DNA of 64,000 nucleotides from an uncultured Methanosarcinaceae archaeon (GTDB lineage Archaea > Halobacteriota > Methanosarcinia > Methanosarcinales > Methanosarcinaceae), in assembly GCA_963847185.1 (NCBI GenBank), contig CAWJYV010000007.1, positions 544,001 to 608,000 on the forward strand, read 5' to 3'. A program made the position numbers and the translations under genes. The stretch's first letter is position 1; each line of letters starts with the position of its first letter. The notes under the pieces were generated by a model. The model was not told the DNA's origin, searched no databases, and saw only the letters and a program-made list of their open reading frames with translations. Below, one piece after another: positions 20,116 through 51,835 of the stretch.

Positions 20116-22167
20116 TTAATAACTCTGGCTTTCAGAACCACCGTTTTGCGTCGTTTTCTCTTGTTTGGCGTTTACTCCAAGCTTTGGAATGAAGATATCT
20201 ATAGACGGACTTGAGTAAATTTTACTAAGAACTGCAAGGTTATCCTCTAATTCTAGTTCATTTTCGGGATTCCTTTCGTAGAAATAGTTGGCAGTATCCT
20301 TGAGAGTACTTTCCTCACTGCCGAAATACAATCCACTTCTTAGAAACTCCCTGGTTCTGAGAACTACATAGCCTCTATATTGTGAGAGTTTGTTTACATC
20401 ACCGATTCTGTAATTATCATAAGATGTAATATTCATCTCTGCAGAACTTGAAGGTATTAGTGGAAGATAAAAGAACCTTGAAGCGTAATAGTCGGTATAA
20501 ACGGAGGAGTTTACAGGAACATAATTGATAACATGTTCAAATCCACTTAATTCATTGGAAGTGAAGTATTCATGCTTAGCGTCCTTTCCAAGGAAATCCG
20601 GGTCTCCAACACTGAAAACCGAAGAAACTAATACAAATCCTGAGAATAGCAAGAGCACTAAAAAGAAGGAATTTACCTTTTTCGAGGTATATTTGTCCAT
20701 ATAATTCCAGAATATATATATTCCATACCCCATTATGAAAGCCATAAATGGACTGACAAAAAGCATAAATCTGTCAGTTCTAAAAAGAACTCTAAATTGC
20801 CAAATAGTATTTACTGGATTTGGAACATAGAAAACGAGGGTCAAAAGGGCAAATAATCCAAATACAGCAGCGTAGTTCTTTTTATAGTTTTTCAGGAGAA
20901 AACCTATTCCTATCAAGGCAAAAAATAAAAAGATGGATTTGTCTAGAAGTCCTACTAAATTAATCAAACTTTCCTGAAGTACTTCTGTACCGCCGGCAGT
21001 TAAAACTATAGACTCCCATAAATGGCTTTGTAAACGGGGAGTCAGACTCCTTTGAACAAAGACGTATGCTACAAAAAACCAGTATGAAGTGAAAGTCACA
21101 TTAAGCAGTAAGAAAAAGGGTTTACTTATATAGCTACCGCTGCCTACTACGTATTCCGAGGCGAAAAGAATGACAAGCAATAGGACTAGCTGAGGAAGAG
21201 AAACATTGTGAACCAGAGTTAAAAAGATTGCTACAAGAACTGAAAGTGCTTTTATAGGCAGTTTTTCCTCTTTGAAATTCACTACGTAAATCAGGTAAAG
21301 CAATATAATGAACATAATGAATGACATTGTGCGAGTGATTACATTTGCTCCATAATAGAGCACAGTGGAACTCACTGAAAACAGGATGCAGGAAATTAAC
21401 GAAATTTGCCTGTTATTTGTTATGTAGTTAAAAAGGTAGTAAAGAAAGATTACGGTTGTTGCATAGAGTGGGGCAGTTACCAGAAAAAGTGAAGTTTTTA
21501 TGCTTATATTAAGAAGTTCAGAAGTTTCTGCAATAAGTACATGGTATAGGGGAAAATATGCATAATCACTTAAGGACGTTGAAATTGTCTGCCCTAAATC
21601 AGCAGTAAGTTGCGAGAGGAAAATATGAGGCAGGATATCTGTGGTTCCTACGTAAAAATCATAATTCAACGTAACACTGTAAATCAAATTAGTCATGATT
21701 AAGAAAGACTCTGCCACAATCAGAGAAGGGCTTGCCTTTTTAGAGAATATTTGCAAAAATACCGAGAGGTAAAGTACTAAAATAAATGCGAAATAGTACC
21801 AGGGCCTGCTTCCCTGGGATAAAAGGAGTGAGACCAGGGAACCGATATAAAATATTCCAAATAGATAGGTAAGGGATTTTATGTTTAGAGATGGTAAAAC
21901 ATCTATGTCATGCAGACTTACATCTTTTTTGTAAACAAAGAGTACAAAAATACAGGAAAGAAGTGCAGGAACTCCTGTAAACAGTCCCCTAAGTGCATAA
22001 CCCAACTTTTCAGTTGCGAACATCCATAAAAACGTAAATATTACTGCGAAAATTATAGCTAAAGGAAACAGAGAATAAATTAACTTCATTAAACGGTTAT
22101 TACCTCGCCTCTGTCCTGTCTCTTCACTTAATTCTAACATACTATCTCCATGATCTTTAATAACCAT
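20116..22167 (-). CDS. Large polytopic membrane protein, GT-C-like (DUF2206/DUF6541-like)
   Basis: Many TM helices; loop motifs GTTDILPH and YAYFPLYH; soluble C-terminal domain with VYTDYY. Confidence 0.65.
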   Translation of the reverse strand: MVIKDHGDSMLELSEETGQRRGNNRLMKLIYSLFPLAIIFAVIFTFLWMFATEKLGYALRGLFTGVPALLSCIFVLFVYKKDVSLHDIDVLPSLNIKSLTYLFGIFYIGSLVSLLLSQGSRPWYYFAFILVLYLSVFLQIFSKKASPSLIVAESFLIMTNLIYSVTLNYDFYVGTTDILPHIFLSQLTADLGQTISTSLSDYAYFPLYHVLIAETSELLNISIKTSLFLVTAPLYATTVIFLYYLFNYITNNRQISLISCILFSVSSTVLYYGANVITRTMSFIMFIILLYLIYVVNFKEEKLPIKALSVLVAIFLTLVHNVSLPQLVLLLVILFASEYVVGSGSYISKPFFLLLNVTFTSYWFFVAYVFVQRSLTPRLQSHLWESIVLTAGGTEVLQESLINLVGLLDKSIFLFFALIGIGFLLKNYKKNYAAVFGLFALLTLVFYVPNPVNTIWQFRVLFRTDRFMLFVSPFMAFIMGYGIYIFWNYMDKYTSKKVNSFFLVLLLFSGFVLVSSVFSVGDPDFLGKDAKHEYFTSNELSGFEHVINYVPVNSSVYTDYYASRFFYLPLIPSSSAEMNITSYDNYRIGDVNKLSQYRGYVVLRTREFLRSGLYFGSEESTLKDTANYFYERNPENELELEDNLAVLSKIYSSPSIDIFIPKLGVNAKQEKTTQNGGSESQSY

Positions 22168-22354
22168 AACTTTATAAATTTATCAAAATATGGTTTTCAA
22201 ATTTTTGTATTTGAAACCAAAAGAGAGTTACAATCAGGACGATATTAATTAAAAATATTTTGCCCCAAAAAGTCTCAGATATCTATTCTAAAGTTTTGGT
22301 CATTTTTTTCAATTACTATCTTTTCTAATATCGTGATCAATAAACTCTTGGTTA

Positions 22355-23365
22355 TTAAATATCCGAACGAGACTTTTTTGAGATAATGAGGGAATTCGCA
22401 AAACTATACAAAAACCCAAGTCCATAGGTAACGTGTTGTATAGGAATTACAAGCAGGGCAAAAAGACCGTATTTAGATCTCATTTTGTAAATTACCTGAA
22501 TTGAGGTGACGAATACCAGAGAAAAATATATTGCCCCAAGTGCAAGTAGAAACAGTATTGGAGTGAAATATATGATAGAAGCGATAAGTAAAGCCACTGC
22601 AAAGATTATTGCAATCGATGGCAAAAATGCATACCAGCGAACGAATTCCCCATGTTTTTTGAAAAGCTCCGCCATCCACATCCCATATTTAAACATTCTT
22701 ACCGAAAAAGACTTGGGAGTTCCTCTTCTATGATGCAAAACCTGTGCTTCAGGGATGTATAAAAACTTACGTCCTCTTTTACCTATTCTATAATTTAAAT
22801 CTCCATCCTGACCTACAATAAATTTCTCGTCAAAGCCTCCCACTTCCTGAATGGCGTATTTTTTATACATGGCATTGCAGTTTGGGAGAGAGCTAACATA
22901 ATGTTTTTTTGTTGAATTTTTGGATTGAGCCGACCCTCCGGAACCCAAAAAGGTTTCCTGAGTATATCCCACTACTCTGCCAAATACAGGATCAGTGTCA
23001 AAAATCAGGTTAGGGCCTCCAACACACACCACATCATCCGGGGCGTTTTGCATTTCGCGGACAAGCACCTTTAACCATTGAGAGTCAACTTTACAGTCTC
23101 CATCAGTAAACGCAACAAGATCTCCTGTGGAGTTCTCTACTCCAAGATTCCTTGCCGCAGCAACATTCTTTCTTTCATTTAAAAGAAGCCTGACAGGATA
23201 TTTTTGTACCAGGTCCCTAGTTTTATCTGTGGACATCCCATCGACAATAGTAATTTCATAAAAATCTTTAGGGTAGTCTAGCTTAAGAAGTGATTCAATA
23301 CATTCTTCAATGAACCTCTCTTCATTACGAATACCTACTACCACTGAAACAAAAGGGCATTCCAT
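22355..23365 (-). CDS. Glycosyltransferase family 2 (ExoA/AglG-like) with C-terminal TMs
   Basis: VVVGIRNEE, VDGMSTD, FTDGDC, GGFDE. Confidence 0.88.
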   Translation of the reverse strand: MECPFVSVVVGIRNEERFIEECIESLLKLDYPKDFYEITIVDGMSTDKTRDLVQKYPVRLLLNERKNVAAARNLGVENSTGDLVAFTDGDCKVDSQWLKVLVREMQNAPDDVVCVGGPNLIFDTDPVFGRVVGYTQETFLGSGGSAQSKNSTKKHYVSSLPNCNAMYKKYAIQEVGGFDEKFIVGQDGDLNYRIGKRGRKFLYIPEAQVLHHRRGTPKSFSVRMFKYGMWMAELFKKHGEFVRWYAFLPSIAIIFAVALLIASIIYFTPILFLLALGAIYFSLVFVTSIQVIYKMRSKYGLFALLVIPIQHVTYGLGFLYSFANSLIISKKSRSDI

Positions 23366-23387
23366 ACAAATTTACCCCATTTTAAAG

Positions 23388-24287
23388 TTATTGTTTTCGA
23401 ATATGCTCATTTAGAAATATCATCCTTGATATGGCATGCAGTATTATTCCTGTAAACACCATGAAGGCTCCTATGATTGTCAGCATCACCATAAGAAGGG
23501 TAGGGCCGAAGCGCAGGTAACCTCCCAAAAGGTAATCCTGCAAAAATTTCAATCCCATAAGAATGCCTGTAGATGCCATAATCAGCCCAGGTACGGCAAA
23601 GTAGTATAGAGGTCTTCTATATTCCATATCCTTCAGAATTCTAAACAGAACCCTGGGCCCATGTATGAAAGGATGTTCACTTGAGCAGTCCTCAAGGTCA
23701 TATCTACAATGAATTTCTACTTCAGTAAACCTCAGGTTGTAATCTTTTGCCTGAATAAGGATTTCGGAGCCTGCAGACATATCTGTGCCATTCAAGTTTA
23801 TATTTTCAATGGCTTTCTTTCCATAAGCCCGAAAACCGCTCTGGGAATCTGTTACCTTCAGACCCCCTGCCATTACAGTTGCGACGTCAAGGACCTTCAT
23901 TCCAAATTTACGATAAATGGGAACATTTTTCCCATTACCGTTGACAAACCTTGAACCTATTACGAGATCAAATCCGTTTTTCAGGGGTTCAAGGAGCTTA
24001 GGGATCTCGGATGGGTCATGTTGACCGTCAGAGTCGATTATGACCATAGCACTTACGTCGAGCTCGCGAGCGGTTTCAAAACAGTCCCGGAGAGCTGCAC
24101 CATATCCTTTGTTGGTCTCGTGGCGGACTACATATGCACCTAGTGATTTAGCGATATCAACAGTGTTGTCAGTGCTTCCGTCGTCCACAACCACTACTTT
24201 ATCGACATATCTTCTGCAGCCTTTAATGACCTCTGCAATGGCATGGGCTTCATTATAGGCAGGCATGGCTGCAATCGTAACGGTCAT
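23388..24287 (-). CDS. GT2, polyprenol-phosphate glycosyltransferase (DPM1-like) with 2 C-terminal TMs
   Basis: PAYNE, VDDGSTD, NKGYG, IDSDGQH, DSQSGFRA. Confidence 0.88.
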   Translation of the reverse strand: MTVTIAAMPAYNEAHAIAEVIKGCRRYVDKVVVVDDGSTDNTVDIAKSLGAYVVRHETNKGYGAALRDCFETARELDVSAMVIIDSDGQHDPSEIPKLLEPLKNGFDLVIGSRFVNGNGKNVPIYRKFGMKVLDVATVMAGGLKVTDSQSGFRAYGKKAIENINLNGTDMSAGSEILIQAKDYNLRFTEVEIHCRYDLEDCSSEHPFIHGPRVLFRILKDMEYRRPLYYFAVPGLIMASTGILMGLKFLQDYLLGGYLRFGPTLLMVMLTIIGAFMVFTGIILHAISRMIFLNEHIRKQ

Positions 24288-25181
24288 GTTTAATCATCTA
24301 CCTCTTCGACAACAAGACTCAATAGTCTCCCGAATAAAGTGATTTGTTATAAAAGAATCGATAAAAAGTTTGAATTCGGTAAACATATTTTTCAGAGTCA
24401 TCGCTCCATAATTTTTAAAGGGTTTCAAAATATCTTCTATAGCTGTATTTACAGAACTTGATTGGGGGATCTTAGTCCTCCTTTTTGACAAAAAGAAGGA
24501 GCATAGATGCTCTGTAAACAAGTCACGGCATATTATCTAAGACGTGTATTTGTTTTAATATACGAGCTATATAAGCATTTAGATACAAAAAATAATTATG
24601 CAGTTTTCTCTATAAAAATTTATTAAGAATTTAGCTAATGTTTTTTTGTATTGGATAGAAGTTGCATTGCATATATTCATATTTTATATAAAGTTATTTA
24701 TTTTGGGAGAATTGTGCTCTATGGGTTTCAAAAAGTTTTCATGATGTCTTTTAACGTTCTAAATGTTACATTCCCAACTTAAACTCAGTTCAAAAAATGG
24801 ATGAGTGAATATTTTAAAGGTCGCAAATCTTCTCAAAAATACTGTAAATAGGGAAAAGTATTTGACATAACAAGCAGGAAATGGGAAAGATATTTTATAC
24901 AACTAAGTAATTAGTAGGTCGGGTTAAGAACATCCCTGGAAAAGGATAAAACCCATGAATATAAGTGCTGCTAAATCCAAAGATGTTTCCTGGATCGAAA
25001 CTAGGATAGTTTACTTTTCGGGATTAATTCTTCACATTCACCGATGAAAGCAGATACATTTGAGAGATAAGGAGATTTTTGGAATGCCTCAGAAGAGGGT
25101 ACAGAAATCGTAAATTAACCCGATAATATGAAAGAAACTGGAAAGCCAGAAAAACATTAAAATCGTTTTATGAGGAGTCAT

Positions 25182-26069
25182 ATGGCCGGAAACCAGAAGT
25201 TTCCATCTGATCTGTTGCTTGTAGCAGGCCTTGTAATTATTACGGATATTTTCGTACTTATTCCTGTACTGAATGAAAGTTTCATCCGTACGGCTCTTGG
25301 TCTACCTATGGTACTTTTCCTTCCAGGGTACGCACTTATAGCCATGTTTTTTCCGAAAAAAAGCGGACTTGAAGGGATGGAGAGAATAGCTCTTTCTGTT
25401 GGGATGAGCGTTGTAATTGTACCTCTTATAGGGCTTGCACTTAATTTTACAACATTGGGAATACGAGAAATTCCTCTTCTTATAAGCCTTTCAGTATTTA
25501 CTCTTATAGTGTGTGGAATGGCCTATATAAGAAGAGTTCGACTTCCAGAAGACAAAACATTTGGTGTTCCTTTAAAAGCTTCTGTTCTCAGTCTGATTGC
25601 TGGAGTCCTTGAAAAACCGGAATCAAAAACTGAGGGCATTCTCAGAATATTTCTAGCCCTTTCTGTCCTTATTTTGATTGGAACTGTAGCTTATGTTGCC
25701 TTAGTACCTCCGGAAAAAGAACCATTTACGGAATTCTATATTCTGGGGGCTGACAGGATAGCTGAGAATTATAAAACAAACTATATACAGGGAGAAAGTG
25801 GGACTTACATTATAGGAATAGCAAATAATGAATATAAAACAATGAACTACACAATGGAAGTAAGGCTTGAAAATAAAACTTTACCGCTTCCTGAAAACCT
25901 GCAAAATATAAAACTTGATCATAACACAACTCTTGAAGAGCCTGTTGAAATCACACCTTCTATTGAAGGAAAGAATATGAAGCTCGAGTTCCTGCTTTTC
26001 AATGAGACTGAAAAGAACATACCTTACAGAGACCTGCGCCTCTGGATAAATGTTACGGAGGAGGTCTGA
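25182..26069 (+). CDS. DUF1616 domain membrane protein
   Basis: LFLPGYAL, ERIALSVGMS, EPFTEFYILG, PYRDLRLWINV; ATG after GAGGAG. Confidence 0.85.
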   Translation: MAGNQKFPSDLLLVAGLVIITDIFVLIPVLNESFIRTALGLPMVLFLPGYALIAMFFPKKSGLEGMERIALSVGMSVVIVPLIGLALNFTTLGIREIPLLISLSVFTLIVCGMAYIRRVRLPEDKTFGVPLKASVLSLIAGVLEKPESKTEGILRIFLALSVLILIGTVAYVALVPPEKEPFTEFYILGADRIAENYKTNYIQGESGTYIIGIANNEYKTMNYTMEVRLENKTLPLPENLQNIKLDHNTTLEEPVEITPSIEGKNMKLEFLLFNETEKNIPYRDLRLWINVTEEV

Positions 26070-26070
26070 G

Positions 26071-26919
26071 ATGGTAACTTCTAAGAGTATAAATATGGAA
26101 ACCATTGAAGCGCCTGAGAATCTGAGGATAGAAACATTTGAAAATTCCAGAAAAAAGTCTGAGGTCAAAAACAAATGGTTTTATCTGGGAATGCCTGCTG
26201 TAGCAGTTGCTTTTGCGGAAATATGTGTTTCTTCGGGAAGATTAGTAGAAGCTGCAATAATATATGCAGTGATCCTGCTTGGACTTTCCTTCTCCATAAT
26301 GTTCATAAAAAATGAAGAAATCCAGAAAACATACCAGGTTCTTATTCTCCTGCCTATCCTGCGTCTGATAAATCTTTCAATGCCAGTTTTCTTTGAGTCT
26401 ACACTTGACTCATTTATTTTTATATATTGTCTCATGTCAATTCCCGTAAGTATTGCAGCTGCTCATCAGGATTTTACTCGCACACAGCTCGGGTTAACTT
26501 TTAATAAGTTAATCCTCTATATCCCACTTTCACTATTTCTGGGTGCAGTATTGGGGGCAGGAGAATACCTGATTATCGGAACTAATAATCTTATCCCAGA
26601 TCTTTCGGTCTTTAATATCGTAAAGCTTAGCATAGTTATGATCTTTTTTGCAGGTCTTGTGGAGGAATTAATTTTCAGGTCAATCCTTCAAACCAGGCTT
26701 CAGATAGTACTCGGGGATAAGAAAGGATTGATATTTACGGCCATTTTGTTTGGACTTATGCATTCAGGATACGGGAGTTTTAGTGAAGTGCTGTACGCAT
26801 CCTTTGTAGGTCTCTTCATAGGATCACTTTTCTACAGAACACGTAGCCTTCCTCTGGTCATGATGATCCATGGCTTCATAAACATCTTTGTTTTCGGGAT
26901 CTTCCCCTTCCTTCTCTAA
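26071..26919 (+). CDS. CPBP (Abi/CAAX type II) intramembrane glutamic endopeptidase
   Basis: EELIFR, FGLMH and HGFIN motifs; ATG after GGAGGAGG, directly after DUF1616. Confidence 0.9.
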   Translation: MVTSKSINMETIEAPENLRIETFENSRKKSEVKNKWFYLGMPAVAVAFAEICVSSGRLVEAAIIYAVILLGLSFSIMFIKNEEIQKTYQVLILLPILRLINLSMPVFFESTLDSFIFIYCLMSIPVSIAAAHQDFTRTQLGLTFNKLILYIPLSLFLGAVLGAGEYLIIGTNNLIPDLSVFNIVKLSIVMIFFAGLVEELIFRSILQTRLQIVLGDKKGLIFTAILFGLMHSGYGSFSEVLYASFVGLFIGSLFYRTRSLPLVMMIHGFINIFVFGIFPFLL

Positions 26920-27186: not shown

Positions 27187-27230
27187 AAAATGTATCCAGT
27201 TTTGGATAAAAGCACAAGAATAAATTCATT

Positions 27231-27439: not shown

Positions 27440-27736
27440 CTAGAAGAGATCTACAATCTTGTAAAGGACGATTGCACAAAACGAAAACAATAGTGGAATA
27501 ATTCCCATGTTTAATGAAACTTTCACCGTATCTCCCCAATGCTTTGATACAGGAAGGAAATCCCTTAGTAAGAGCAGTAGAAGTAAAGCTACAGTAGCCA
27601 CTGATGCACCTACAGGGATTTCTGGTATGCTGGTAATTGAGGGAATACCTGAAGAAACTGAACTTGACGAAAGTAAACTTATAAGCGTAGTTAGGACTCC
27701 TTGAGTTGATTCGCGTATTTGAGGAACAAATGTCAA
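27440..27736 (-). CDS. Small Ser/Thr-rich two-TM membrane protein (paralog of 4383-4673)
   Basis: GGAGGAGG RBS, TTG start; S/T-rich N-terminus, IPEIPV, two TMs, SLNMGIIPLL. Confidence 0.78.
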   Translation of the reverse strand: MTFVPQIRESTQGVLTTLISLLSSSSVSSGIPSITSIPEIPVGASVATVALLLLLLLRDFLPVSKHWGDTVKVSLNMGIIPLLFSFCAIVLYKIVDLF

Positions 27737-28463: not shown

Positions 28464-29132
28464 ATGAACTCTACCGAATTTAAAATCCACAATTCTTCTA
28501 AAATATACGGTACCTCTGTAATAGGGAAAGATACGGTAATAATGGAAAATGTGATTATCGGGTATCCTGAACACAGGACCCTGATGGAAATTTTGAAACA
28601 AAATCTTGAAATTGAAGATTTTGATTTTCCAGGTTCTACTATAGGCTCGAATTCGATTGTAAGAGCCGGGTCAACGATTTTCTCCAACGTGAAAACCGGA
28701 AAAAACTTCAAAACCGGGCATAATGTATTGATCAGAGAAAACACTGAAATAGGAGATAATGTTCTTATTGGAACAAACGTCATTATAGACGGGCATGTGA
28801 AGATAGGAAATAACGTCAGTATTCAGGGCAATGTCTACATTCCTACAAACGTCATCATTGAAGATAACGTGTTTATAGGGCCCTGCGCGGTTCTGGCTAA
28901 CGATAAATATCCTATTAGAAAAAAATACGAACTGAAAGGTCCTGTTTTGAGAAAAGGCGCATCTGTCGGTGCAAATGCTACTCTGCTTCCTGATGTTGAA
29001 ATCGGAGAAGGGGCAATGGTTGCCGGAGGGGCACTTGTGACAAAGAACGTGCCCGCATGGAAACTTGCAATTGGTGTGCCTGCAAAGATTCAGGAACTTC
29101 CGAAGGATTTAAAGGAATTGAATAAGATATAA
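28464..29132 (+). CDS. Nucleotide-sugar N-acetyltransferase (WbpD-like)
   Basis: Hexapeptide repeats, [29 protein letters not shown]. Confidence 0.85.
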
Positions 29133-29196
29133 ACTTACTAAAACCAATAGTAAGTTAAAAAAAAGTTTATTGGAATTATTAAAAAGAGGTCCGAAA

Positions 29197-30279
29197 ATGA
29201 TCCCAATCGCCAAGCCCTTATTGGGCAAGGAAGAGATTGATGCCGTAACAGAGGTTCTGAGTTCAGGAATGATTGCACAGGGCCCTAAAGTAGATGAATT
29301 TGAACTTGCTTTTTCCGAGTACACTGGCTGTGAGTATGCAGCAGCTGTAAATTCCGGCACTGCAGCCCTACACATTGCACTTCTCGCCTACGGCATAGGA
29401 AAGGGAGATGAAGTGATTACGACTCCCTTCAGCTTTATTGCTACCGCAAACAGCATCCTTTATACTGGGGCAAAACCTGTTTTTGCAGATATAGAGCCAG
29501 ATACCTTCAATATAGACCCTGAAAAAATTCAGGAAAAAATCACTTCCAAGACTAGAGCAATTATGCCTGTCCATCTCTATGGACACCCTGCAGATATGAA
29601 GGCCATAATGGAAATTGCAGAGGACAAAAAGCTTATTGTGGTTGAAGATGCCTGTCAGTCTCATGGTGCAGCATTACATGGAAAAAAAGTAGGAAGCTTT
29701 GGAACTGGAGCATTTAGCTTTTACCCTACAAAAAATATGACAACTAGTGAAGGTGGAATGCTCACCACAAACGATAAAGAAATCGCAGAGAAAGCAAAAA
29801 TGATCCGGGCCCATGGTTCCAAGATCCGCTACCTGCACGAAATGCTGGGTTTCAACTTGCGTATGACTGATATTGCGGCTGCAATAGGCCTTGTACAGCT
29901 CGGAAAACTAAATGAATTCACCATAGCAAGACAGAAAAACGCAGAAATTCTGTCATCCGGACTCAAAGGCATACCAGGACTCATACCATCAATTACAAAA
30001 GCCGGGTGTACCCATGTATTCCACCAGTATACCATCAGGGCCAAGAAGAGAGATCAACTGGCAGCCTTCCTTAAAGAAAATGATATAGGGACAGGAATTC
30101 ACTACCCGATACCTATCCACAAGCAGCCAGTCTACAAAGATCTTGGATACAAAGACTCTCTTCCAGTCTCGGAAAAGGCAGTAGAAGAAGTTCTCTCCAT
30201 TCCTGTACATCCTGCATTGTCCAGAGCCGACGTACAGGCGGTAGTCAAAGCGATCAAAGAATTTTATGCACAGGCTTAA
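29197..30279 (+). CDS. DegT/DnrJ/EryC1/StrS aminotransferase (WbpE-like)
   Basis: [37 protein letters not shown]. Confidence 0.92.
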
Positions 30280-30317
30280 GTAATTTTTCTAGATGCTGCA
30301 TTTTTCAAAATCAGGAA

Positions 30318-31265: not shown

Positions 31266-31343
31266 ACCGGAATAAAATCCTGACAAATATTCCAAAATTT
31301 CTGGGAATATAAAATATTTGAAAAACAATTTGGAGTGATGATT

Positions 31344-32771: not shown

Positions 32772-32828
32772 AATAAACTCTTTCAATAGCTTAATTCCAT
32801 TTTTATCACCTGGAGAAGGGCTAGGACA

Positions 32829-34533: not shown

Positions 34534-34878
34534 TCACAGATTATTCGCTTTATACCTGATTAATCCAGTAATCGAATGCAGCAAAATCCCCATAAAAACC
34601 ATTGAAGTCCCTACCAGAGTAAGCAGTATTATTAAAGCTGTAAACTTAAAATCAAAGCCTCCGTCAAGATGAGATGTTTGCACAACATTAAGGCATATGT
34701 ACACTCCGCCTGCTACAAGAATAAAACCTGGCAGTGTAAAGTAGTAAAGAGGTTTATTAAGCTTGATATTGTTAAAAATTTTTGATAATATTGCCGGAAA
34801 ATGCCTTAAAGGGTTTTCTATTGAACGATTCACTTCATACATTTGAAATATATTTTGAAGCGTAAAACCACCTTCCAT
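34534..34878 (-). pseudogene. C-terminal membrane fragment of a DPM1-like GT2
   Basis: NPLRH...NKPLYYFTLPG...GILLHSI aligns to the C-terminus of 44146-45111; no catalytic domain. Confidence 0.65.
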
Positions 34879-41019: not shown

Positions 41020-42943
41020 TCAGTCTTTTCCTGAGTAAGCTTTGACATAATAATTATTATAAATCAAATCATGTCTCGATGTCTGAAATTGTGATAGGAA
41101 ACCATCATCGATTACTTTGACTAAACCTAATTCTCCCCCTTTCCAGTCCATAACCACAGGTTCTTCTGTTATGCATTCCCTCAATAGTATTACATTTTTA
41201 TTTAGCGATTCGTAGTCAGTTTCATTAATGCCTTTAATGTCGCAATTACACGAAAGTTCTCTAAATAATATCGAATAACTTCCGTCAGTGTTTACGGTTC
41301 CACTACAAGTTTCAGCAATAGTTCTGGATGCTTGGATTTCAGAATTCGTAAACGAAGCACGTGGCCATCGCTCCTTACAGTAAAGTGGACTATCTCCATT
41401 GACATAAGGGGTTGTTATCATTGTAAATGTAAAAATAATAAATATTAGAGAAAGTGTTGTTATTTTCTTATTATTTAGTGAATTTACTAGGGAAAATATG
41501 GCTTGTGTTGACATAAAAATTAAAAATAAATATGCAAATGTAAGCCATCTGGTAGAAAGCTGAGCGTTTCCAATTCCAGTAAGTGGGGCTCCATATATGA
41601 AGAAATACAGGGAAACTGTAGCTACAATTATAGTGAACTTCTTAGAGTCTTGAGCTTTTGAAGAGAACCATATCAAGGCTCCAATAATAGCAAGGCCAAT
41701 AAGAATTAAATATCCCAAATGAAATAAGACGTTAGAAATCATGCTATATTGTGCATAATAATCAGCATAGACGTTAGAATCATGAGAAAAAAAGTCTCCG
41801 TATTTTAATACATTGACGATTGGATTAATTGCGAAATAAAAGAAACTTTTCCCACTAGTGAGATCCTTGTCAGCCTGCATCCAGTAATAAACAAGCATAA
41901 CTCCAAAAATTAATAGAGAATTCATGCTTAGAGTTGTACTTAAAGTGCTCATGTTCAAATATCTACGATTTCCATGAATATGAGTAAAAACATGTTCTCC
42001 TATAAATATACTTAATAAAATAATTAGTGAAGCTAAGGTGCTTAATTGGTGAGTAAGTATCAAAACAAAAATTAATAAGACTTTAATAATATTATTAGCG
42101 ACAAAGTTTGAATTAGTAAGTATAATATATAAAAGTATTAAGAGCCAGCAAAAGACTATTGATCCCGGCGTTATACTGGTCAAACTTGCTACAATAAATA
42201 TGTCACTTACGTTTGCAAGTAACATCGCAAATAACCCAAATTTAACTCCTGACTAACTTCTTGCCTATTAAATATATATATATTGTACTGACTGAAAAGA
42301 AAAAAACAGTAGAGAAAAACACCGAATCTTTAATATTAAAAGAAGATACTAGACTTAAACTTGCATTAAGTACATGGTAGATAGGGAAATCGAAATATTT
42401 TGTATAATCCATACTTTCTGGAGTAATAAAACCGGAAGCTACTACTTGATTTATTAATTTTGCATGCTTGAATAAATCATTTCCAATCAAACTATTAAAT
42501 TCATAATATATTCCATACCTTATGTTTAAAGATAAGAAAATTATTTTCAGTATTACAGACAGCTTTGTATCTCTTTCCTTCAGATAAATAATCTCAATAG
42601 CGATCAGTGAACTTAAAAAAGAGACTAATATAAAATAGACAAGAGGTCTGTGATATATATTAAAATAAAGCAGTAATATACTGATAGTATAAATAAATAC
42701 GAACATTATGTCCAGTGAGTGAATTATTGTTTTATTTGCATTATTAAGTCTGTAATCAAAATTGCTAAGCGATTCTTTGAAAAAACGATCTTTAAAAAGA
42801 ACATAGATTAGAGGTGAAATGAAAAATATTAATCCGATATCATATTGAAGCAATTTTGCATACCATGAGATAAATAATATAAGTATACCGAGAATACTGA
42901 TGCCTAAAGCAGCGACTAAGTCTAGTTTTGAAGAAATCTTCAT
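41020..42943 (-). pseudogene. GT-C-like polytopic membrane protein split by a 1-nt frameshift (ORFs 42242-42943 and 41020-42225)
   Basis: Removing one base near 42250 fuses KKLV to GVKFGLFAMLLANV; the ~640-aa product is colinear with 20116-22167. Confidence 0.7.
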
Positions 42944-42995: not shown

Positions 42996-43475
42996 TCATG
43001 CAGCAGATTTATTATATTGGCTAATATATCGCTTAAGAGATTCTACAAGTTCGTTTTTTATTCGCAGGTGGGAAGCCGTACATTTTAATTCCTGTAAATG
43101 ATTTTCTAATTCATTCAGGGTGTTAGCAACCATTATTCGGTCTTCGTTTTCAAGTTCTTTTGAGATTTCTAATTGATGATCGTCAATAACCTCTCCCAAT
43201 TCTTTATTTCGGGGTACCGCAATCACCAACTTTTCGTTTTCTAATGAAGTCATCAACGAACCGACGCCTGCGTGGCAAACAATTACTCTCGCTTCTGAAT
43301 AAAACTGATCCATTTTTTCCTTGGACTCAAATCTGAAGTAAGATGCGTGCTTGGGTTCATATTCAGTGTTTCCAATTTGCATTATAACTTCTTCATCCGT
43401 TTTTTCTGCAATTGCATCCATCCATCTAATTAGCCTTTCAAATCCATACATCATACCAATAGTAACAAATATCAG
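42996..43475 (-). CDS. PssE/Cps14G (Alg13-like) glycosyltransferase catalytic subunit, probable CTG start
   Basis: CTG-IFVTIG overlaps the upstream TGA; QIG, HAGVGS, VPR, DDHQLEI motifs. Confidence 0.85.
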   Translation of the reverse strand: MIFVTIGMMYGFERLIRWMDAIAEKTDEEVIMQIGNTEYEPKHASYFRFESKEKMDQFYSEARVIVCHAGVGSLMTSLENEKLVIAVPRNKELGEVIDDHQLEISKELENEDRIMVANTLNELENHLQELKCTASHLRIKNELVESLKRYISQYNKSAA

Positions 43476-43927
43476 ATAATTCTCCCCCAGTATTTTGCCT
43501 TATTCCCATATTTTGACAAGAGTGACTCCCATTGAACCAGAAAAACATCAGATATATGATACACTAGCTTTCCTCCTCCTGAGGGTGTTGTTATACGTGC
43601 TAACGTTTCAATGAAAATCACTTTTGAACCCAAAAGTTTACCAATATAACAGAAAGGAACTGCAATTTCTCCTCCTCCTGTAGTTACAATGATATTGGGT
43701 CGCTCTTTAACTAATATATAGAAAATTTTCATAATGTTTTTAATTTGTAAAAGTTTTCCTTTTAGAGTCCAATCTTTAAACTCAAGAAAATAAGCATTTT
43801 TTAAGTTTTTTGTTGCTTCTGAAGAGTAAGTTGCAAAGAAATAATCACAATGTTCAAATGCTCTAACTAACTGCATCATTTCAGTGAAATGACCGCCATG
43901 AGAACAAACTAGACATATTTTAGTCAT
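43472..43927 (-). CDS. PssD/Cps14F (Alg14-like) glycosyltransferase subunit
   Basis: LVCSHGGHF, IVTTGG, FIETLAR, FLVQWE. Confidence 0.9.
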   Translation of the reverse strand: MTKICLVCSHGGHFTEMMQLVRAFEHCDYFFATYSSEATKNLKNAYFLEFKDWTLKGKLLQIKNIMKIFYILVKERPNIIVTTGGGEIAVPFCYIGKLLGSKVIFIETLARITTPSGGGKLVYHISDVFLVQWESLLSKYGNKAKYWGRII

Positions 43928-44145: not shown

Positions 44146-45111
44146 TTATGCCACCCTTGCTTCCTTCATAATTGAAGACACCGAATGTAATAATATCCCT
44201 GTCAGAGCCATGAAGGTCCCTATAACAATAAACAGAACCATTAGCATTGTTGGGCCAAACTGAAGGCTTCCTCCCATGGAAAAGGTGCGAATAAAGTGAG
44301 CACCCATATAGAGGCCTCCTATTCCAAGAGATAGGCCAGGAACTGTAAAGTAGTAAAGCGGCTTGTTGAACTCTATATCCTTTAAGACCATGACAAGGAC
44401 GCCGAAACCATGCTCGATTGGATTTTTGGTTGAGCAATCAACGTCGTAGCGAACTCCTATTTCAACTTCTTTTATTCGAATGCCAGATTTTGCCGCATCT
44501 GCAAGCATTTCGCTTTCTATTGCCATACCCTGTGCATTGAAACGAAAATTGTCTTTTGTAGAGGCTGCAAAGGCACGAAAACCGCTCTGAGAATCTGTAA
44601 TTTTGAGTCCAGAATTCAGATTAGTAAACCTGTCCAGAACTCTCTGGCCGACGCGACGGTAGAGAGGTGTGTTCCTGTCCAGACCATTCAAATAACGGCT
44701 ACCATTTACCATATCTGCCTCGCCTTTAAGAATTGGCTGAACAAGTCGTGGAATGTCTTCAGGATTATGCTGGCCGTCAGAGTCCATGGTAACTATAATG
44801 TCTGCACCCTCTGCGGCTGAAAAACCGGTTTTTAGAGCGCCTCCTTTTCCTGTGTTAACCTCATGAACGATCACTTCTGCGCCCGCATTCCTGGCAATTT
44901 CAGCTGTCCTGTCCGAGCTGCCGTCGTCTACAACGATCACATTGTCAGCGTAGTGTTTTGTAAGGAGTACTATGCTTCCTATAGATACTTCTTCATTGTA
45001 AGCTGGAAGAATAACAGTAATGTTTTGGGGAGCTGTGCCCCTCTTGCAGGAATTTTCGCTTTTTTTAATTAGGCATCGGGCGATTTTACCCATAGACGGT
45101 TCATTACTCAC
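44146..45111 (-). CDS. GT2, DPM1-like polyprenol-phosphate glycosyltransferase
   Basis: PAYNEE, VDDGSSD, MDSDGQH, GSRY, DSQSGFRA. Confidence 0.88.
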   Translation of the reverse strand: MSNEPSMGKIARCLIKKSENSCKRGTAPQNITVILPAYNEEVSIGSIVLLTKHYADNVIVVDDGSSDRTAEIARNAGAEVIVHEVNTGKGGALKTGFSAAEGADIIVTMDSDGQHNPEDIPRLVQPILKGEADMVNGSRYLNGLDRNTPLYRRVGQRVLDRFTNLNSGLKITDSQSGFRAFAASTKDNFRFNAQGMAIESEMLADAAKSGIRIKEVEIGVRYDVDCSTKNPIEHGFGVLVMVLKDIEFNKPLYYFTVPGLSLGIGGLYMGAHFIRTFSMGGSLQFGPTMLMVLFIVIGTFMALTGILLHSVSSIMKEARVA

Positions 45112-46117: not shown

Positions 46118-47092
46118 TTATATGGCTGGTTCAGTTTGCGTTGTCTCTTCTAGTGAATGGATTACGATTCCTTTTATTGTCATATATGCGCCTGCAAGAG
46201 CAAGAAACACCATCAAGAATGCAGGGCCGAAGTGAAGACTTCTGAATCCGAGAAGAAAAGCTTCAAGGAACCTGAATCCCATATATAGGGCACATGTTGC
46301 AAGGGCAAAACCTGGTACTGAGTAAAAATACAATGGTTTGTTTATTTCTATGTCTTTTACAACAGCCTCCAGGATTCCTAAAGTGTACTTGATCGGATTT
46401 CTTACTGGGTTTTCAAGTTTATGGGAAGTCCCTATTTCAACTTCTTTTATTCGAAGACCGGATTTCTCAGCCTTTGAGAATATATCACTCTCTATTTCAA
46501 GATCCTGTGAAATGAACTGGAAATTGTCTTTTGCAGAAGCAGAAAAAGCGAGGAAACCACTCTGGGGGTCTGTTATCCTGAGGCCTGAATTAAGGTTTGT
46601 GAATTTGTCCAGTATGGTCTGACCAACTCGGCGATAAATTGAAACTTTTTTGCCCAAATCGTTTAAGTAACGGCTACCGTTAACAATATCAGCACTTCCT
46701 TTGGCAACCGGGGCAATTAGTTTTGGAATATCTTCAGGATCGTGCTGTCCCTGTGAGCCCATGGTCACAATTATATCGGCTCCAAGTTTGATTGCAACTT
46801 CGATACCTGTCTCAAGGGATGCACTTTTTCCTTTGCTGGCTACATTGACAATCACTGTAGCTCCGGCTTTTTTAGCTATATCACCTGTCCGATCTGAGCT
46901 TCCGTCATCTACAACGATTACATTGTCTGCATAAAGCCTTGTTAGCAGAATAGTACTGCCAATGGAAGCTTCTTCATTACAAGCAGGAAGAACCACTGTA
47001 GTATTTTGAATGGATTTATCTCTTCTGCAAGGATATTCTTCTTTCTTGGTGGTACTTTTGGCACTTTTGCCTATAAACAATTTATTACTCAT
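46118..47092 (-). CDS. GT2, DPM1-like paralog with a degenerate DxD motif
   Basis: Tandem paralog of 44146-45111; TMGSQGQH replaces TMDSDGQH. Confidence 0.82.
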   Translation of the reverse strand: MSNKLFIGKSAKSTTKKEEYPCRRDKSIQNTTVVLPACNEEASIGSTILLTRLYADNVIVVDDGSSDRTGDIAKKAGATVIVNVASKGKSASLETGIEVAIKLGADIIVTMGSQGQHDPEDIPKLIAPVAKGSADIVNGSRYLNDLGKKVSIYRRVGQTILDKFTNLNSGLRITDPQSGFLAFSASAKDNFQFISQDLEIESDIFSKAEKSGLRIKEVEIGTSHKLENPVRNPIKYTLGILEAVVKDIEINKPLYFYSVPGFALATCALYMGFRFLEAFLLGFRSLHFGPAFLMVFLALAGAYMTIKGIVIHSLEETTQTEPAI

Positions 47093-48263: not shown

Positions 48264-49187
48264 ATGACCGGAAAAAAAAATTTCTCAGACCTTTTGATCG
48301 TTATGGGGCTTGTGCTCCTTACAGATATCTTTGTACTTACACCAGGATTAAATGAAAATATGCTCAGGAATATTCTTGGGCTACCTCTTGTGCTTTTCTT
48401 TCCAGGATATGCTCTTATTGCTGCTCTTTTTCCTGCAAAATTGGATCTTGACGGAATCGAAAGGACAGCTCTCTCCTTCGGACTAAGCATTGCAGTTGTG
48501 CCTCTGATAGGGTTAGGCCTCAACTACACCCCATGGGGGATAAGGCTTTTGCCAATTCTTATAAGCCTATCAGTTTTTACTCTCATTATGTGTGGGCTTG
48601 CTTACCTAAGGCGAGCAAAACTTCCGGAAACGGATGTTTTCGAAGTGGATTTCAAGGAAATGGTACTGTCATTCAAATCCGAACTCTTGGAAAAGCCGGA
48701 ATCAAAGGTAGATAAAACCCTTAATATCATCCTGATAATTTCTATTCTATTCTCTGTCGCAACTCTTGTTTATGTAGTTGTAACGCCTAAAGAGGGGGAA
48801 CATTTTACAGAATTTTATCTTCTTGGGTCTGAAGGAAAAGCTGACAACTATCCTGCAAAGTATATCCTTGGAGATAACGGAACCTTAATTGTGGAAGTTG
48901 TAAATCATGAATACAGATTTGTAAATTACACAATGGAAGTTAGGCTTGAAAATAGATCTCTCCCTCTTCCGGAAAATCAAAGATATATAAGCCTTGCTCA
49001 TAACGAGACATGGGAAGAACCAGTTACTTTTACGCCTCCTTTTGAAGGCAGGAATCTGAAGCTTGAGTTTCTGCTCTTTAATGAAACTGACAAGAATCTG
49101 CCCTATAGAGATCTACATATCTGGATCGACGTAAACTCAACAATAAAACCTGAGGTTCCAAAAACCTCAGAACCTCAACAGGCATAA
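48264..49187 (+). CDS. DUF1616 domain membrane protein
   Basis: LFFPGYAL, ERTALSFGLS, EHFTEFYLLG, PYRDLHIWIDV; paralog of 25182-26069. Confidence 0.87.
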   Translation: MTGKKNFSDLLIVMGLVLLTDIFVLTPGLNENMLRNILGLPLVLFFPGYALIAALFPAKLDLDGIERTALSFGLSIAVVPLIGLGLNYTPWGIRLLPILISLSVFTLIMCGLAYLRRAKLPETDVFEVDFKEMVLSFKSELLEKPESKVDKTLNIILIISILFSVATLVYVVVTPKEGEHFTEFYLLGSEGKADNYPAKYILGDNGTLIVEVVNHEYRFVNYTMEVRLENRSLPLPENQRYISLAHNETWEEPVTFTPPFEGRNLKLEFLLFNETDKNLPYRDLHIWIDVNSTIKPEVPKTSEPQQA

Positions 49188-49939
49188 GATCTCAAGTCAT
49201 GGATTTTTTACTTTCAGACCAGCAAAATTAACGAGGTCAGATTTTTCAAGTATATTTCATAAGATTTTTGGGTGTGCAGTTTACGAAGATATTCGAGTAT
49301 CCAGGATGAAATTTCTTAATAAATACTCCAAAACTTATTCTCATGAAGGCTTTCCTGCAGCCCGTAAGTGCTCTGAGGATCATCAATTTGGAATATAACA
49401 CCGTGAAAAAAATATCACATACCAGTATTTTCAAATAAGTTATATTCTCCTTCAAGGATAGGCAGCTGGAACGTAAGATGAACATGCACAAACTTTTCTT
49501 GTGAAATTTCAAATTTGTTTTCGGTATTCTGTAAACTAGTTACTGATCTTATGAGAGTACAGAATGTATCTATTATTTTTCAGATCCTGAAGTTCATAAA
49601 ATTAAATATTAGAGTAGATTAAGATGTTTACTGTGGAAGAATAAATAAAGTGTTTTTTGAATCAGTAAAATATCAGTTCAGTATGGTTAAATATTTTAGC
49701 TTCAGCTGTTAGTAAAAATCATCATTTTATCTATGACGAATTTTGAGTTTTTTGAAGATATTATGGGAATAAAAATTGTTGTACGATAATTAGAGCAGAA
49801 AAGATGTTCAGAACTTAGAGGTTGAAACATATGAAGAATAATGAATTGTGTATTGATGAACGGTAGAAGATCGAAGGAAAGACACGGTTGTGTTTAATGA
49901 AATAACGACACAAAAAGAGGGTCAGAGGATAAATGTAGG

Positions 49940-50280
49940 GTATGAGTTGAGGGAGAGGAGACGGATGGAACACAACGTAGAGGACTGTTGAGCCAACAGA
50001 GAGACAGGAGAGAGACAAACAGCGGGGAAAGGGAGAGAGAGAGAAAGAGACGAGAGAGAGAGACGGAGAGAAAAGAGAGGGGAGAAGGGAGAACGAAAGA
50101 AAGGAACGTGGAAGAAAGAGGAATGCGGATAGGTAAGAAAAAGACATGAGATGAAGATTGAAGTGTTTGAGAAAAAGAGAAAGAGATATAGGATGATGAA
50201 AAAGAGAAAATATAGGAACAGAAAGAGGGAGCGAAGCTTGAGAAATAGAGCGAAAAAAGGAAGAGGTGAAGTAGTTTTCA
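49940..50280. repeat. Purine-rich (GA) low-complexity tract
   Basis: GAGAGAGAGAGACGGAGAGAAAAGAGAGGGGAGAAGGGA and similar; nearly all purines on the + strand. Confidence 0.7.
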
Positions 50281-50650
50281 GTTAAACTCTTTTACTATCA
50301 ATAAAAATTTATATGATGTTCTCAATAAGGCTAGATAGCATCATAAATGTATAATGTTCTTCATAATTAGTGTAGAACCCTAATTTGACAGATTCTGCTA
50401 ATCAATACAGTATTTTCTTATACAAAACATATTTCATCGACACATTACATTTTGATTAAATGAAATATGTCAAAAAATCGTAAGATGCGAGACAAAACTT
50501 TGAATTGTATGAAGAAAACAGAAGCATGAAGCCCATTTAAACATTATGCAATATATGCTTCTGTCAAATTTGGGTAAAATTTAGTAAAATATTCGGAAAT
50601 ACTAAAATAATTATATGAGTTTGCCCCTATTTGAAGAAGGAGTCATTCCT

Positions 50651-51835
50651 GTGCAAAAATTAATTAACCCCAATAAAAGGCGAAAAGAACCGAACTTTCT
50701 TCTAATTATTTCAGTTCTGACTTTGACTTTACTTGCAATTTCTCCTGTAGCCGTATCCGCTAGCAAGCTGGAGTTATCCTTTCCTCCAGAGGTGGGGCAT
50801 GTTCTGGGAAATGTATCTTTGGAAGTCCTGGAGAATGCGGGGAACTCAGTAGTTGCTCCTAATCCACAGGAAAGTTTTGGGCCCTCAAAAGAAATAGAGT
50901 TATACACTGATCTAGTTTATGTTGGAGCTGGATTTGGGGCATTAATTTTAATTTTACTAATTTATTTATATATGACTTCGAGGAGTTCTCAGTCTTCAAA
51001 AAAACCTCTTAAATGCTCCGATTCGCTTAAAATATGGCCGACATTACATAAAACAAACAGAGAAAATTCCAGAATGCGGAAACTTAGGATCTTTACCGGA
51101 ATTCCAATTCTGTGCATAATCGGTGCCGAACTCCTTATCTTTTCCGGGAGAATTGGAGTAGCTGTCTGGGTACATATCGGAATCCTGATAGCTCTTTCAC
51201 TTTCCAATATGTTCATAAAAGATCGGGAAATCCACAAAATACATCAGGCCCTAATGCTTCTTCCAGTCCTGAGACTTATAAACCTTTCAATGCCTGTATT
51301 TTTTGAGACCACTCTTTATACGTTTATTTTCATTTATGGTCCGCTGGCAATTCCTGTCGGAGTTATGGTAATCCACCAACGGAATTCCCTTGAGCAGATC
51401 GGAATTTCTATGAAGAATATTGTAGTCTACATGATTCTCTCAATCCCCATAGGTTTTCTGCTGGGACTAGGGGAATATATGACCATTAAGACAGGGTCTC
51501 TGATCCCTGATCTTACTTTCGGAAACCTGCTTAAACTAACTATTGTTATGGTTTTCTTTGTAGGCCTGATTGAAGAACTTATTTTCAGATCAATCCTCCA
51601 AACTACACTTGAAGAAGCCCTGAATGTGCAGGAAGCTCTGTTGATTACAAGTATCATGTTTGGATTAATGCACTCAGGATATGGTACCTTCTACGAAATT
51701 CTCTATACTGGTTTTGTAGGATTTATAATGGGTCTTGCTTTCTACAAAACCAGAAGTCTACCCTTCATCGCAGTTCTGCACGGTTTTGTCAATGTTTTCC
51801 TGTTTGGAATCCTTCCTCATTATTTTGGTGGCTGA
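50651..51835 (+). CDS. CPBP intramembrane glutamic endopeptidase with an N-terminal signal-peptide/TM extension
   Basis: EELIFR, FGLMH, HGFVN; GTG start after AGGAG (alternative ATG at 50615). Confidence 0.88.
   Translation: MQKLINPNKRRKEPNFLLIISVLTLTLLAISPVAVSASKLELSFPPEVGHVLGNVSLEVLENAGNSVVAPNPQESFGPSKEIELYTDLVYVGAGFGALILILLIYLYMTSRSSQSSKKPLKCSDSLKIWPTLHKTNRENSRMRKLRIFTGIPILCIIGAELLIFSGRIGVAVWVHIGILIALSLSNMFIKDREIHKIHQALMLLPVLRLINLSMPVFFETTLYTFIFIYGPLAIPVGVMVIHQRNSLEQIGISMKNIVVYMILSIPIGFLLGLGEYMTIKTGSLIPDLTFGNLLKLTIVMVFFVGLIEELIFRSILQTTLEEALNVQEALLITSIMFGLMHSGYGTFYEILYTGFVGFIMGLAFYKTRSLPFIAVLHGFVNVFLFGILPHYFGG

Follow-up and report, generated by a model that had tools for sequence, protein, structure and literature searches.

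In Haloferax volcanii, the AglD/AglR/AglS system pairs a family 2 glycosyltransferase (GT2) that charges polyprenyl phosphate with a polytopic transferase of the GT-C type that acts outside the membrane. Bacterial counterparts are the GtrB/GtrA/Gtr-type systems, ArnC/ArnT, and PpgS with its GT-C partner. The Haloferax mechanism is set out in PMC3871713 (cited in part), and a further precedent is found in CPBP proteases that act as sorting enzymes and can be encoded next to their target (PMC11980579, in part), as with the myxosortase MrtX, and with MrtJ and its adjacent JDVT-CTERM target. Here we compare these systems with a locus from an uncultured Methanosarcinaceae archaeon (assembly GCA_963847185.1, contig CAWJYV010000007.1). 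The stretch that was analysed, 64,000 nucleotides long (positions 544,001 to 608,000 of the forward strand, referred to as the window and numbered from its first letter), contains between positions 20116 and 51835 two sets of genes in which a GT-C-like protein and DPM-like GT2s diverge from a DUF1616 membrane protein and a CPBP protease. The best reading is that these genes form two functional units and not one. Specifically, an AglD/AglS-like dolichyl-phosphate-sugar pair would stand beside a separate, undescribed envelope module of DUF1616, CPBP and a small protein with two transmembrane (TM) helices, a view that we favor tentatively and at somewhat less than an even chance.

An earlier reading of the window, made from its letters alone (the sequence-only reading), held that one module occurs twice, and all of the open reading frames (ORFs) that it named are present where it placed them. 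The repeat itself is clear for three families and remote for a fourth. The DUF1616 proteins (copy 1 at 25170–26069, with a probable start at 25182, and copy 2 at 48264–49187, both on the plus strand) are 58.6% identical over 295 amino acids (E 7e-121), the CPBP proteases (26050–26919, with a probable start at 26071, one base past the DUF1616 stop, and 50615–51835, both on the plus strand) are 47.5% identical over 278 amino acids (E 4e-89), and three DPM-like GT2s, more precisely AglJ/PpgS-like, are mutually 41–57% identical, all by BLASTP. Hidden Markov models (HMMs) derived from relatives of these families find exactly two DUF1616 proteins, two CPBP proteases, and three DPM-like GT2s plus one fragment in the window, and the gene order and divergent orientation are identical in both copies. 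The GT-C family HMM matches two places. The two GT-C-like proteins (20116–22167 and 41020–42943, both on the minus strand) give no match in an all-against-all BLASTP; compared directly they share 27% identity over 135 amino acids (E 3e-4), and the profile of the 683-amino-acid copy-1 family aligns with an intact copy-2 orthologue from a relative (locus L002) at an hhalign probability of 99.1% (E 6.9e-19, 23% identity, 444 columns). Because three families are paralogous and the GT-C link appears only at the profile level, chance is excluded and the duplication must be ancient; the repeat is old and uneven between the copies. Copy 2 looks partly decayed in this genome, with its GT-C gene frameshifted and one of its GT2s devoid of the DxD motif. 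Several relatives carry a third DUF1616-CPBP pair about 9 kb downstream; the family HMMs rule out such a pair in the window.

It is informative to examine this architecture across relatives. For this purpose 45 DUF1616 proteins were aligned and one genome per species was scanned; at least 589 stretches encode DUF1616 relatives, and the best 80 were kept, yielding 78 loci in which ORFs were called and then searched with the window proteins. Almost all of these loci belong to Methanosarcinales, with a few from Methanoperedens, one from Hydrothermarchaeota and two on short contigs labelled Bacteroidales (L054, L057), which look archaeal and appear to have been binned with a bacterium. Homologues of the window proteins carry Methanosarcina names. 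The loci hold 90 DUF1616 genes, 84 of them evaluable, and a CPBP gene lies on the same strand within 2 kb after 71 of the 84. In 55 of these 71 pairs the gap is at most 4 nucleotides or the genes overlap, with gaps taken from longest-ORF starts so that some overlaps may be overstated. The small two-TM protein lies within 5 kb downstream of DUF1616 in 36 of 62 cases. Furthermore, pairwise distances among DUF1616 proteins and among their CPBP partners correlate (r 0.81, a value reached by none of 500 permutations), and the pair has therefore been inherited and duplicated as a unit.

The remaining families follow this pair unevenly. Among the copy-1 orthologues (n=12), CPBP is present in 12/12, the DPM-like GT2 in 10/10, the GT-C protein in 10/10 and the small protein in 7/10; the copy-2 orthologues (n=24) have them in 17/22, 17/22, 2/15 and 14/20, respectively, and the other DUF1616 genes (n=54) in 42/50, 2/38, 0/27 and 15/32. 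Co-localisation of four families in other genomes, which the sequence-only reading had put forward as a check on its model, thus takes a narrower form: DUF1616, CPBP and the small protein are conserved together, and the GT-C protein keeps company only with the copy-1 orthologues. What relatives conserve as a unit is the DUF1616 gene with CPBP after it, not a set of four genes. The triad of DUF1616, CPBP and small protein is also found in Methanococcoides, Methanolobus and Methanohalophilus, and 19 of the 29 DUF1616-CPBP pairs outside the two orthologue groups have no glycosyltransferase within 5 kb. The association with glycosylation genes in Methanosarcina is one of neighbourhood, specific to the lineage, and does not show that the protease takes part in polysaccharide synthesis. 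In copy 2 the two genes are separated by a 1.4 kb spacer (49188–50614) that contains a low-complexity GA-rich run at 50033–50079; copy-2-type pairs in relatives have spacers of 0.3–1.1 kb, whereas most other pairs abut.

Outside this group of relatives, tblastn of DUF1616 against plasmids returned 100 records, nearly all haloarchaeal, of which 10 were inspected; the PLSDB gene tables are incomplete, and absences in these loci are accordingly soft. CPBP follows DUF1616 in 2/10, namely a Methanohalobium plasmid with the full triad and the haloarchaeon DL31, where DUF1616 and an Abi/CPBP protein lie inside a cluster of glycosyltransferase and rhamnose genes. Four of the ten (L082, L083, L086, L087) have a YdjM-type (PF04307) membrane hydrolase no more than about 2 kb from DUF1616, four have glycan genes within 5 kb, and in four DUF58 is nearby, in some with DUF4129 or MoxR. 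One YdjM-family gene abuts DUF1616, in the position that CPBP occupies in Methanosarcinales. DUF1616 also recurs near glycan genes in unrelated lineages (haloarchaeal H40, H25, H13, H32). The link between DUF1616 and CPBP is thus strong in Methanosarcinales and occasional elsewhere.

Both DUF1616 proteins of the window match PF07760 over its full length (profile positions 1–307 of 307; 304.4 bits for copy 1 and 353.2 bits for copy 2, cut-off 31.6 bits). An AlphaFold2 model of the copy-2 paralogue has a mean predicted local distance difference test score (pLDDT) of 91.0 and shows five TM helices and an amphipathic helix, with a beta-sandwich at the C-terminus. The sandwich resembles CARDB and macroglobulin-type immunoglobulin (Ig) domains (CARDB TM-score 0.66–0.70 on target); the TM part has no structural match in the PDB, and a protein-atlas search with this domain that excluded PF07760 gave no usable match. 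Within the TM domain, R40, a P-G-Y motif, E71, R72, R121 and R122 are invariant; the family has no invariant cysteine. N-X-S/T sequons number seven in copy 1 and eight in copy 2, and across the family they occur at 6.6 per protein, compared with 1.6 in composition shuffles. Of 92 sequences, 87 retain the sequon at N92, 79 that at N235 and 84 that at N252, all three of which lie on the predicted outer face. The Haloferax DUF1616 protein HVO_2173 (PF07760) is reported as N-glycosylated at 4 sites in the cited portion of PMC8241124. The window proteins resemble it in being full-length, multi-TM and rich in N-glycosylation sites; in the full-text literature searched, DUF1616 was mentioned only as a glycoprotein. 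Clustered at 50% identity, the family has at least 6,482 representatives, and long members carry extra S-layer, LysM, ConA-like lectin, PKD, CarboxypepD_reg or deacetylase domains. PF02517, the CPBP model, was found in none of the 41 long representatives scanned (taken from 150 listed of the 6,482), and we therefore saw no DUF1616-CPBP fusion.

The CPBP partners are glutamic intramembrane proteases of the CPBP/Rce1-like type. Those of the window score 66.2 bits (copy 1) and 65.4 bits (copy 2) against PF02517, for which the cut-off is 22.4 bits, and both contain EExxxR, FxxxH and HxxxN (pattern E-E-R-H-H-N). Database homologues of the copy-1 protein are 282 amino acids long, and the copy-2 protein, 1.4 kb 3′ of its DUF1616 gene, has an N-terminal extension of about 120 amino acids. 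Among CPBPs that accompany DUF1616, the Glu-Glu-Arg of EExxxR never varies (75/75), and 62/75 retain all six catalytic positions. A complex prediction for DUF1616 with CPBP, run without controls, scored 0.00 against a mark of 0.32 and speaks neither for nor against binding. Archaea commonly encode CPBP proteases, and a review of archaeal membrane proteases, in the part cited here, gives their function as unknown (PMC9263693).

The third member of the triad belongs to a new family. In the window it is encoded at 27440–27736 on the minus strand, convergent with the copy-1 CPBP gene, and matches no Pfam or NCBIfam model. The sequence-only reading spoke of two such paralogues within the region; there is one, and the second, more divergent member (about 4389–4673, minus strand, family HMM E 4.4e-12) lies outside and adjoins neither module. 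A further candidate, at 34534–34878, was ruled out because it is the C-terminal fragment of a GT2, and a likeness to the eukaryotic DPM2/DPM3 subunits was set aside, as no Pfam model matches the protein at E <= 0.01. Homologous ORFs number 52, spread over 43 of the 78 loci, and there are 496 database clusters, the named ones all ‘hypothetical’ and from Methanosarcinaceae; a protein-atlas search likewise returned only unnamed archaeal clusters, and RefSeq annotates an 86-amino-acid member next to CPBP on the Methanohalobium plasmid. Members are about 82–88 amino acids long and consist of an N-terminal tail rich in Ser, Thr and Ala, a near-invariant G-x-P (consensus PGLPEYG), a first TM helix, a loop with conserved Ser and Trp, and a second TM helix, with a basic residue usually following the TM helix. 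There is no invariant cysteine in the family and no C-terminal tripartite signal. Judged from its sequence, the combination of tail, G-x-P and TM helix would suit a carrier or a sorting-signal role.

The putative sugar-transfer unit is best defined in copy 1. Its GT-C-fold protein (20116–22167) is a polytopic protein of 683 amino acids with about 13–15 TM or hydrophobic segments that extend to about residue 520, followed by a mixed alpha/beta soluble domain at residues 537–661. At E <= 0.01 it matches no Pfam or NCBIfam model, and the family alignment, used as a profile against PDB sequences, gave no match at E <= 10; its 150 homologues, where named, are Methanosarcinaceae ‘hypothetical protein’ entries, and PF13231 is present in one of the 120 listed. 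An AlphaFold2 model built with 25 homologues (pLDDT 72.6, predicted TM-score 0.77) bore out the earlier suggestion of a GT-C fold when compared with the PDB by Foldseek: ranks 1–27 are all GT-C enzymes (STT3, PglB, AglB, AftA, AftD, DPY19, ArnT, ALG12), at probabilities of 0.99–1.00 and E values of 4e-5 to 7e-3. The fold is thus supported by the predicted structure of copy 1, to which copy 2 is tied by the hhalign probability of 99.1%. D177 and H181 are invariant in the family and occur in a loop after the fifth predicted helix; the distribution of charges predicts this loop to be external, and copy 2 retains both residues, as G-N-D...H. The distant copy-2 paralogue, which the sequence-only reading took as one gene, is related at the profile level (E 2.8e-18 and 2e-7 against the GT-C family HMM) and is split into two ORFs in different frames (42242–42943, 233 amino acids, and 41020–42225, 401 amino acids). 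In the intact 652-amino-acid orthologue in L002, residues 6–233 match one frame and residues 212–641 another, which places a one-base frameshift near 42226–42245; this may reflect a genuine pseudogene or a sequencing or assembly error.

The GT2s that accompany these proteins resemble polyprenyl-phosphate sugar synthases, as had been proposed: their best NCBIfam matches are AglJ and PpgS. Copy 1 has a putative dolichyl-phosphate sugar synthase of the AglJ/PpgS/GtrB type (23388–24287, minus strand, Pfam PF00535), with an intact DxD motif and a C-terminal TM anchor, and copy 2 has two, at 44146–45111 (DxD intact) and 46118–47092 (adjoining DUF1616, with DxD changed to GSQ), both on the minus strand and both with a Pfam GT2 match. 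Against the AglJ model these three score 150, 160 and 115 bits (cut-off 325), and against PpgS 125, 130 and 88 bits (cut-off 370), so by sequence they are relatives of AglJ/PpgS and not equivalogs. Their C-terminal hydrophobic segments fall at residues 264–282, 279–308 and 286–311. DSD is kept in 12/12 of the 23388–24287 group; in the orthologous group of 46118–47092 (L002, L005, L007, L008, L010 and others) it survives in only 4/13, and the two sister groups keep the acidic motif in 12/12 and 9/9. The 46118–47092 protein is probably inactive and may be a retained pseudo-enzyme. The remnant at 34534–34878 (minus strand) retains the two C-terminal TM segments of a DPM-like GT2; it is 37.5% identical over 104 amino acids to residues 187–290 of 23388–24287 (BLASTP) and covers AglJ model positions 202–283. 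Two further glycosyltransferases complete the sets. An MftF/EpsD-like GT2 with C-terminal TM segments (22355–23365, minus strand, PF00535 E 1.4e-28, NCBIfam models below cut-offs) adjoins the GT-C gene in 10/10 evaluable copy-1-type loci, and in copy 2 PssE and PssD (42996–43454 and 43472–43927, minus strand; NCBIfam E 1.1e-34 and 6.6e-43, with Pfam Glyco_tran_28_C and Alg14 matches) form an Alg13/Alg14-like split glycosyltransferase.

By analogy with the described systems, the GT2 of the sugar-transfer unit would charge dolichyl phosphate with a single sugar on the cytoplasmic side of the membrane, and after flipping, the GT-C-fold enzyme would pass the sugar to an external glycan or protein acceptor. 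This pair fits AglD/AglR/AglS in gene adjacency, in the C-terminally anchored GT2 and in the GT-C fold followed by a soluble domain at the C-terminus; it differs in that no Pfam or NCBIfam model covers the GT-C protein, no dedicated flippase accompanies it and the GT2s score far below the AglJ cut-off. Since the external transfer of a sugar in the manner of AglD/AglS would account for the pair, a protease is not needed. In the second unit, DUF1616 and CPBP are co-inherited, usually abut and would be co-transcribed, with the small protein often just downstream. The five-TM DUF1616 protein is predicted to display its CARDB-like Ig domain and conserved sequons outside the cell, and CPBP may cleave a membrane-embedded neighbour, the better candidate being the small protein, at its G-x-P/TM1 segment; the module would mature or anchor components of the envelope. 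The glycosylation genes are probably close by since DUF1616, and perhaps the S/T-rich tail of the small protein, are glycosylated surface components.

For this second unit, the closest parallel comes from CPBP sorting enzymes whose genes lie beside that of their target. Like MrtX/MrtJ, the window has a CPBP with catalytic motifs in a small conserved neighbourhood of membrane-anchored partners and in a cell-surface setting. The differences are that the Mrt models fall below cut-off (MrtJ 37–39 bits against 75, MrtS 32–36 against 130), that the neighbours have no C-terminal tripartite signal with an invariant cysteine, and that the partners are a polytopic DUF1616 and a two-TM mini-protein, in archaeal hosts and with cleavage only proposed. 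The exosortase/PEP-CTERM and archaeosortase/PGF-CTERM systems likewise link a membrane endopeptidase to exopolysaccharide or surface-glycoprotein loci, and the layout of the small protein resembles a linker plus sorting signal; however, CPBP is a glutamic and exosortase a cysteine protease, the motif here is internal and not C-terminal, and neither the PGF-CTERM nor the PEP-CTERM model matched any window protein. Eight of the ten plasmid loci, all eight haloarchaeal, also differ, as DUF1616 there lies beside YdjM-type hydrolases, DUF58/DUF4129 or glycan genes and is not followed by CPBP. In literature searches for archaeal CPBP with glycosyltransferases or for methanochondroitin gene clusters, none of the titles and abstract openings pointed to this module.

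Several observations weigh against this reading of the two units. On the glycosyltransferase side, the Foldseek TM-scores are modest (0.27–0.46 on the query), the GT-C family belongs to no curated sequence model, any correspondence between the loop that holds D177 and the first external loop that is canonical in such enzymes is tentative, and the donor and acceptor of the enzyme are only inferred; nor was a dedicated flippase for dolichyl-phosphate sugars found in the module. With regard to the envelope unit, 13 of the 84 DUF1616 genes have no adjacent CPBP, and eight of the ten plasmid loci, all eight haloarchaeal, have none after DUF1616. As a rule the small protein is encoded on the opposite strand, and none lies beside copy 2 in the window. 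Cleavage by CPBP is a proposal, and one catalytic histidine is lost in 12/75 partners (to Ser, Gly, Asn or Gln, in L025, L026, L032, L056, L073; L028, L029, L040, L043, L055, L070; and L049), which makes a non-proteolytic role possible. In addition, the 78 loci are mostly close relatives, and the counts are not independent events.

These points bear on the other ways in which the locus can be read. The sequence-only reading would have the small two-TM protein carry a polysaccharide, perhaps methanochondroitin-like, which could be built on it or passed to it by the GT-C enzyme; CPBP would process this protein with DUF1616 as an accessory subunit, in a proteoglycan-like system of anchoring or release. 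Such a system would make sense of the conserved DUF1616-CPBP-small-protein neighbourhood, of a small protein whose S/T/A-rich N-tail, G-x-P, TM helix and usual basic residue look like a sorting signal with a glycosylatable linker, and of the disaggregatase-related genes that adjoin it; CPBP enzymes can act in sorting and sit beside their targets (PMC11980579, in part), and the genes for methanochondroitin synthesis are given as unknown in the cited part of PMC12369344. We nonetheless consider it unlikely, given that outside the two Methanosarcina paralogue groups the GT-C protein is adjacent in 0/27 and the DPM-like GT2 in 2/38, that the triad is found in several other genera, that the small protein is missing next to copy 2 in the window, and that the small family has neither an invariant cysteine nor a C-terminal tripartite signal, nor any sequence feature of glycan attachment. 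Methanococcoides, Methanolobus and Methanohalophilus are not known to make methanochondroitin, which argues weakly against a role specific to that polymer. It is similarly doubtful that DUF1616, CPBP and the small protein of about 85 amino acids form an undescribed envelope system in which CPBP cuts an internal sorting signal, with glycosylated DUF1616 as its partner, and so releases or re-anchors a peptide-linked glycan, the two Methanosarcina sets having been recruited beside dolichyl-phosphate-sugar/GT-C pairs that decorate the product. If this were true, the mini-protein would be little beyond a glycosylatable S/T-rich tail and an internal sorting signal.

The substrate of CPBP could also lie elsewhere. 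In 29 of the 78 loci there are ORFs, 59 altogether and usually on the same strand as DUF1616, for secreted proteins with a signal peptide, a C-terminal TM helix and a basic tail, and in Methanohalobium TIGR04279 and PGF-pre-PGF proteins come after the triad. Together with the myxosortase precedent (PMC11980579, in part), this invites the view that CPBP sorts or matures nearby C-terminally anchored surface proteins, with DUF1616 and the small protein as accessories and the glycosylation genes as mere neighbours. Neither copy in the window has such a protein next to it, 49/78 loci have none, no common motif is established before the C-terminal helix, and the Mrt models stay below their cut-offs (MrtJ 37–39 against 75 bits), so that we give this view little weight. 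A different assignment would make DUF1616 the missing membrane component, either as a flippase for dolichyl-phosphate sugars or as a GT-C partner that presents the acceptor, with CPBP serving as a scaffold and not as a protease, a role suggested for some CPBP proteins of bacteria. The invariant charged and polar residues of its TM domain (R40, P-G-Y, E71, R72, R121, R122), the lack of a GtrA-like flippase in the module, the recurrence of DUF1616 in glycan clusters of unrelated haloarchaea (H40, H25, H13, H32), its fusions to LysM, ConA-like lectin or polysaccharide deacetylase domains, and the 12/75 CPBP partners without one catalytic histidine all lean that way. We know of no flippase with an external Ig domain, though, the CPBP Glu-Glu-Arg is invariant in 75/75 and 19 of 29 pairs in the third group have no glycosyltransferase within 5 kb; on balance this too seems improbable. 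Least expected of all is a bacteriocin-like peptide with an Abi-type immunity protein, unrelated to glycans. A small hydrophobic ORF does adjoin the CPBP gene, and bacterial CPBP/Abi proteins act in bacteriocin immunity or processing (as the family name implies; PMC9263693, in part), but the small protein is 29–72% identical to the window copy across genera and has several copies per genome, which in our judgement is atypical of fast-varying toxin loci, neither a leader peptide nor an exporter gene was seen, and the invariant partner of CPBP is DUF1616 and not the small ORF.

The secreted proteins mentioned above have an ‘SPFAIVG’-type motif (for example in L002, L005, L007, L009, L010, L012, L014, L019 and L042), and some give weak scores when compared with the N-terminal extension of the copy-2 CPBP.

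The region sits in a long run of surface-glycan genes. Inside it are genes for GT4 and GT2 glycosyltransferases, PssD/PssE, a pyruvyl transferase, an acyltransferase and a flippase, and upstream of it come two disaggregatase-related genes together with genes for a flippase and sugar-nucleotide enzymes. The disaggregatase-related proteins (11454–14543 and 15300–16943, minus strand; Disaggr_assoc, Disaggr_repeat and beta-helix domains) lie just upstream of the glycan genes and may point to a connection of the region with the matrix polysaccharide of Methanosarcina. Downstream of copy 1, on the plus strand, 28464–33875 holds five sugar-nucleotide genes identified with Pfam and NCBIfam (hexapeptide acetyltransferase, DegT aminotransferase, Gfo/Idh/MocA oxidoreductase, UDP-sugar dehydrogenase and VimE-like deacetylase), a set that fits a 2,3-diacetamido-2,3-dideoxy-uronic acid route. 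The first four follow the copy-1-type pair in 6 loci (L063, L065, L067, L069, L073, L076), all with the deacetylase, and occur in other contexts in L012, L023 and L030. Both the two flippases and the two deacetylases that had been counted in the region exist, and one of each lies outside it: the Polysacc_synt flippases are at 35842–37155 (32.8 bits, cut-off 28.2) and, outside, at 9246–10700, and the deacetylase at 32829–33875 has a 49% identical relative at 1693–2745, outside. More generally, much of the glycan toolkit is doubled between window positions 1–10700 and 28464–37155, with a deacetylase, a UDP-sugar dehydrogenase, a hexapeptide transferase, a flippase and a small two-TM protein in each. 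An FrhB/FdhB-like iron-sulfur protein is convergent with the polysaccharide pyruvyl transferase at 38375–40986, and this pair occurs together in L002 and L020. No model for a Wzy polymerase matched any ORF scanned, and an Rfam scan of the whole window at gathering thresholds gave 0 matches.

The 683-amino-acid protein thus appears to define a GT-C-fold family that current sequence models miss, and this family lies by disaggregatase-related genes in a genus whose matrix-polysaccharide synthesis genes, including those for methanochondroitin, are unidentified according to the cited part of a 2025 review (PMC12369344). Likewise, the DUF1616-CPBP pair with its conserved mini-protein offers a concrete three-gene hypothesis, one that is testable in genetically tractable Methanosarcina.

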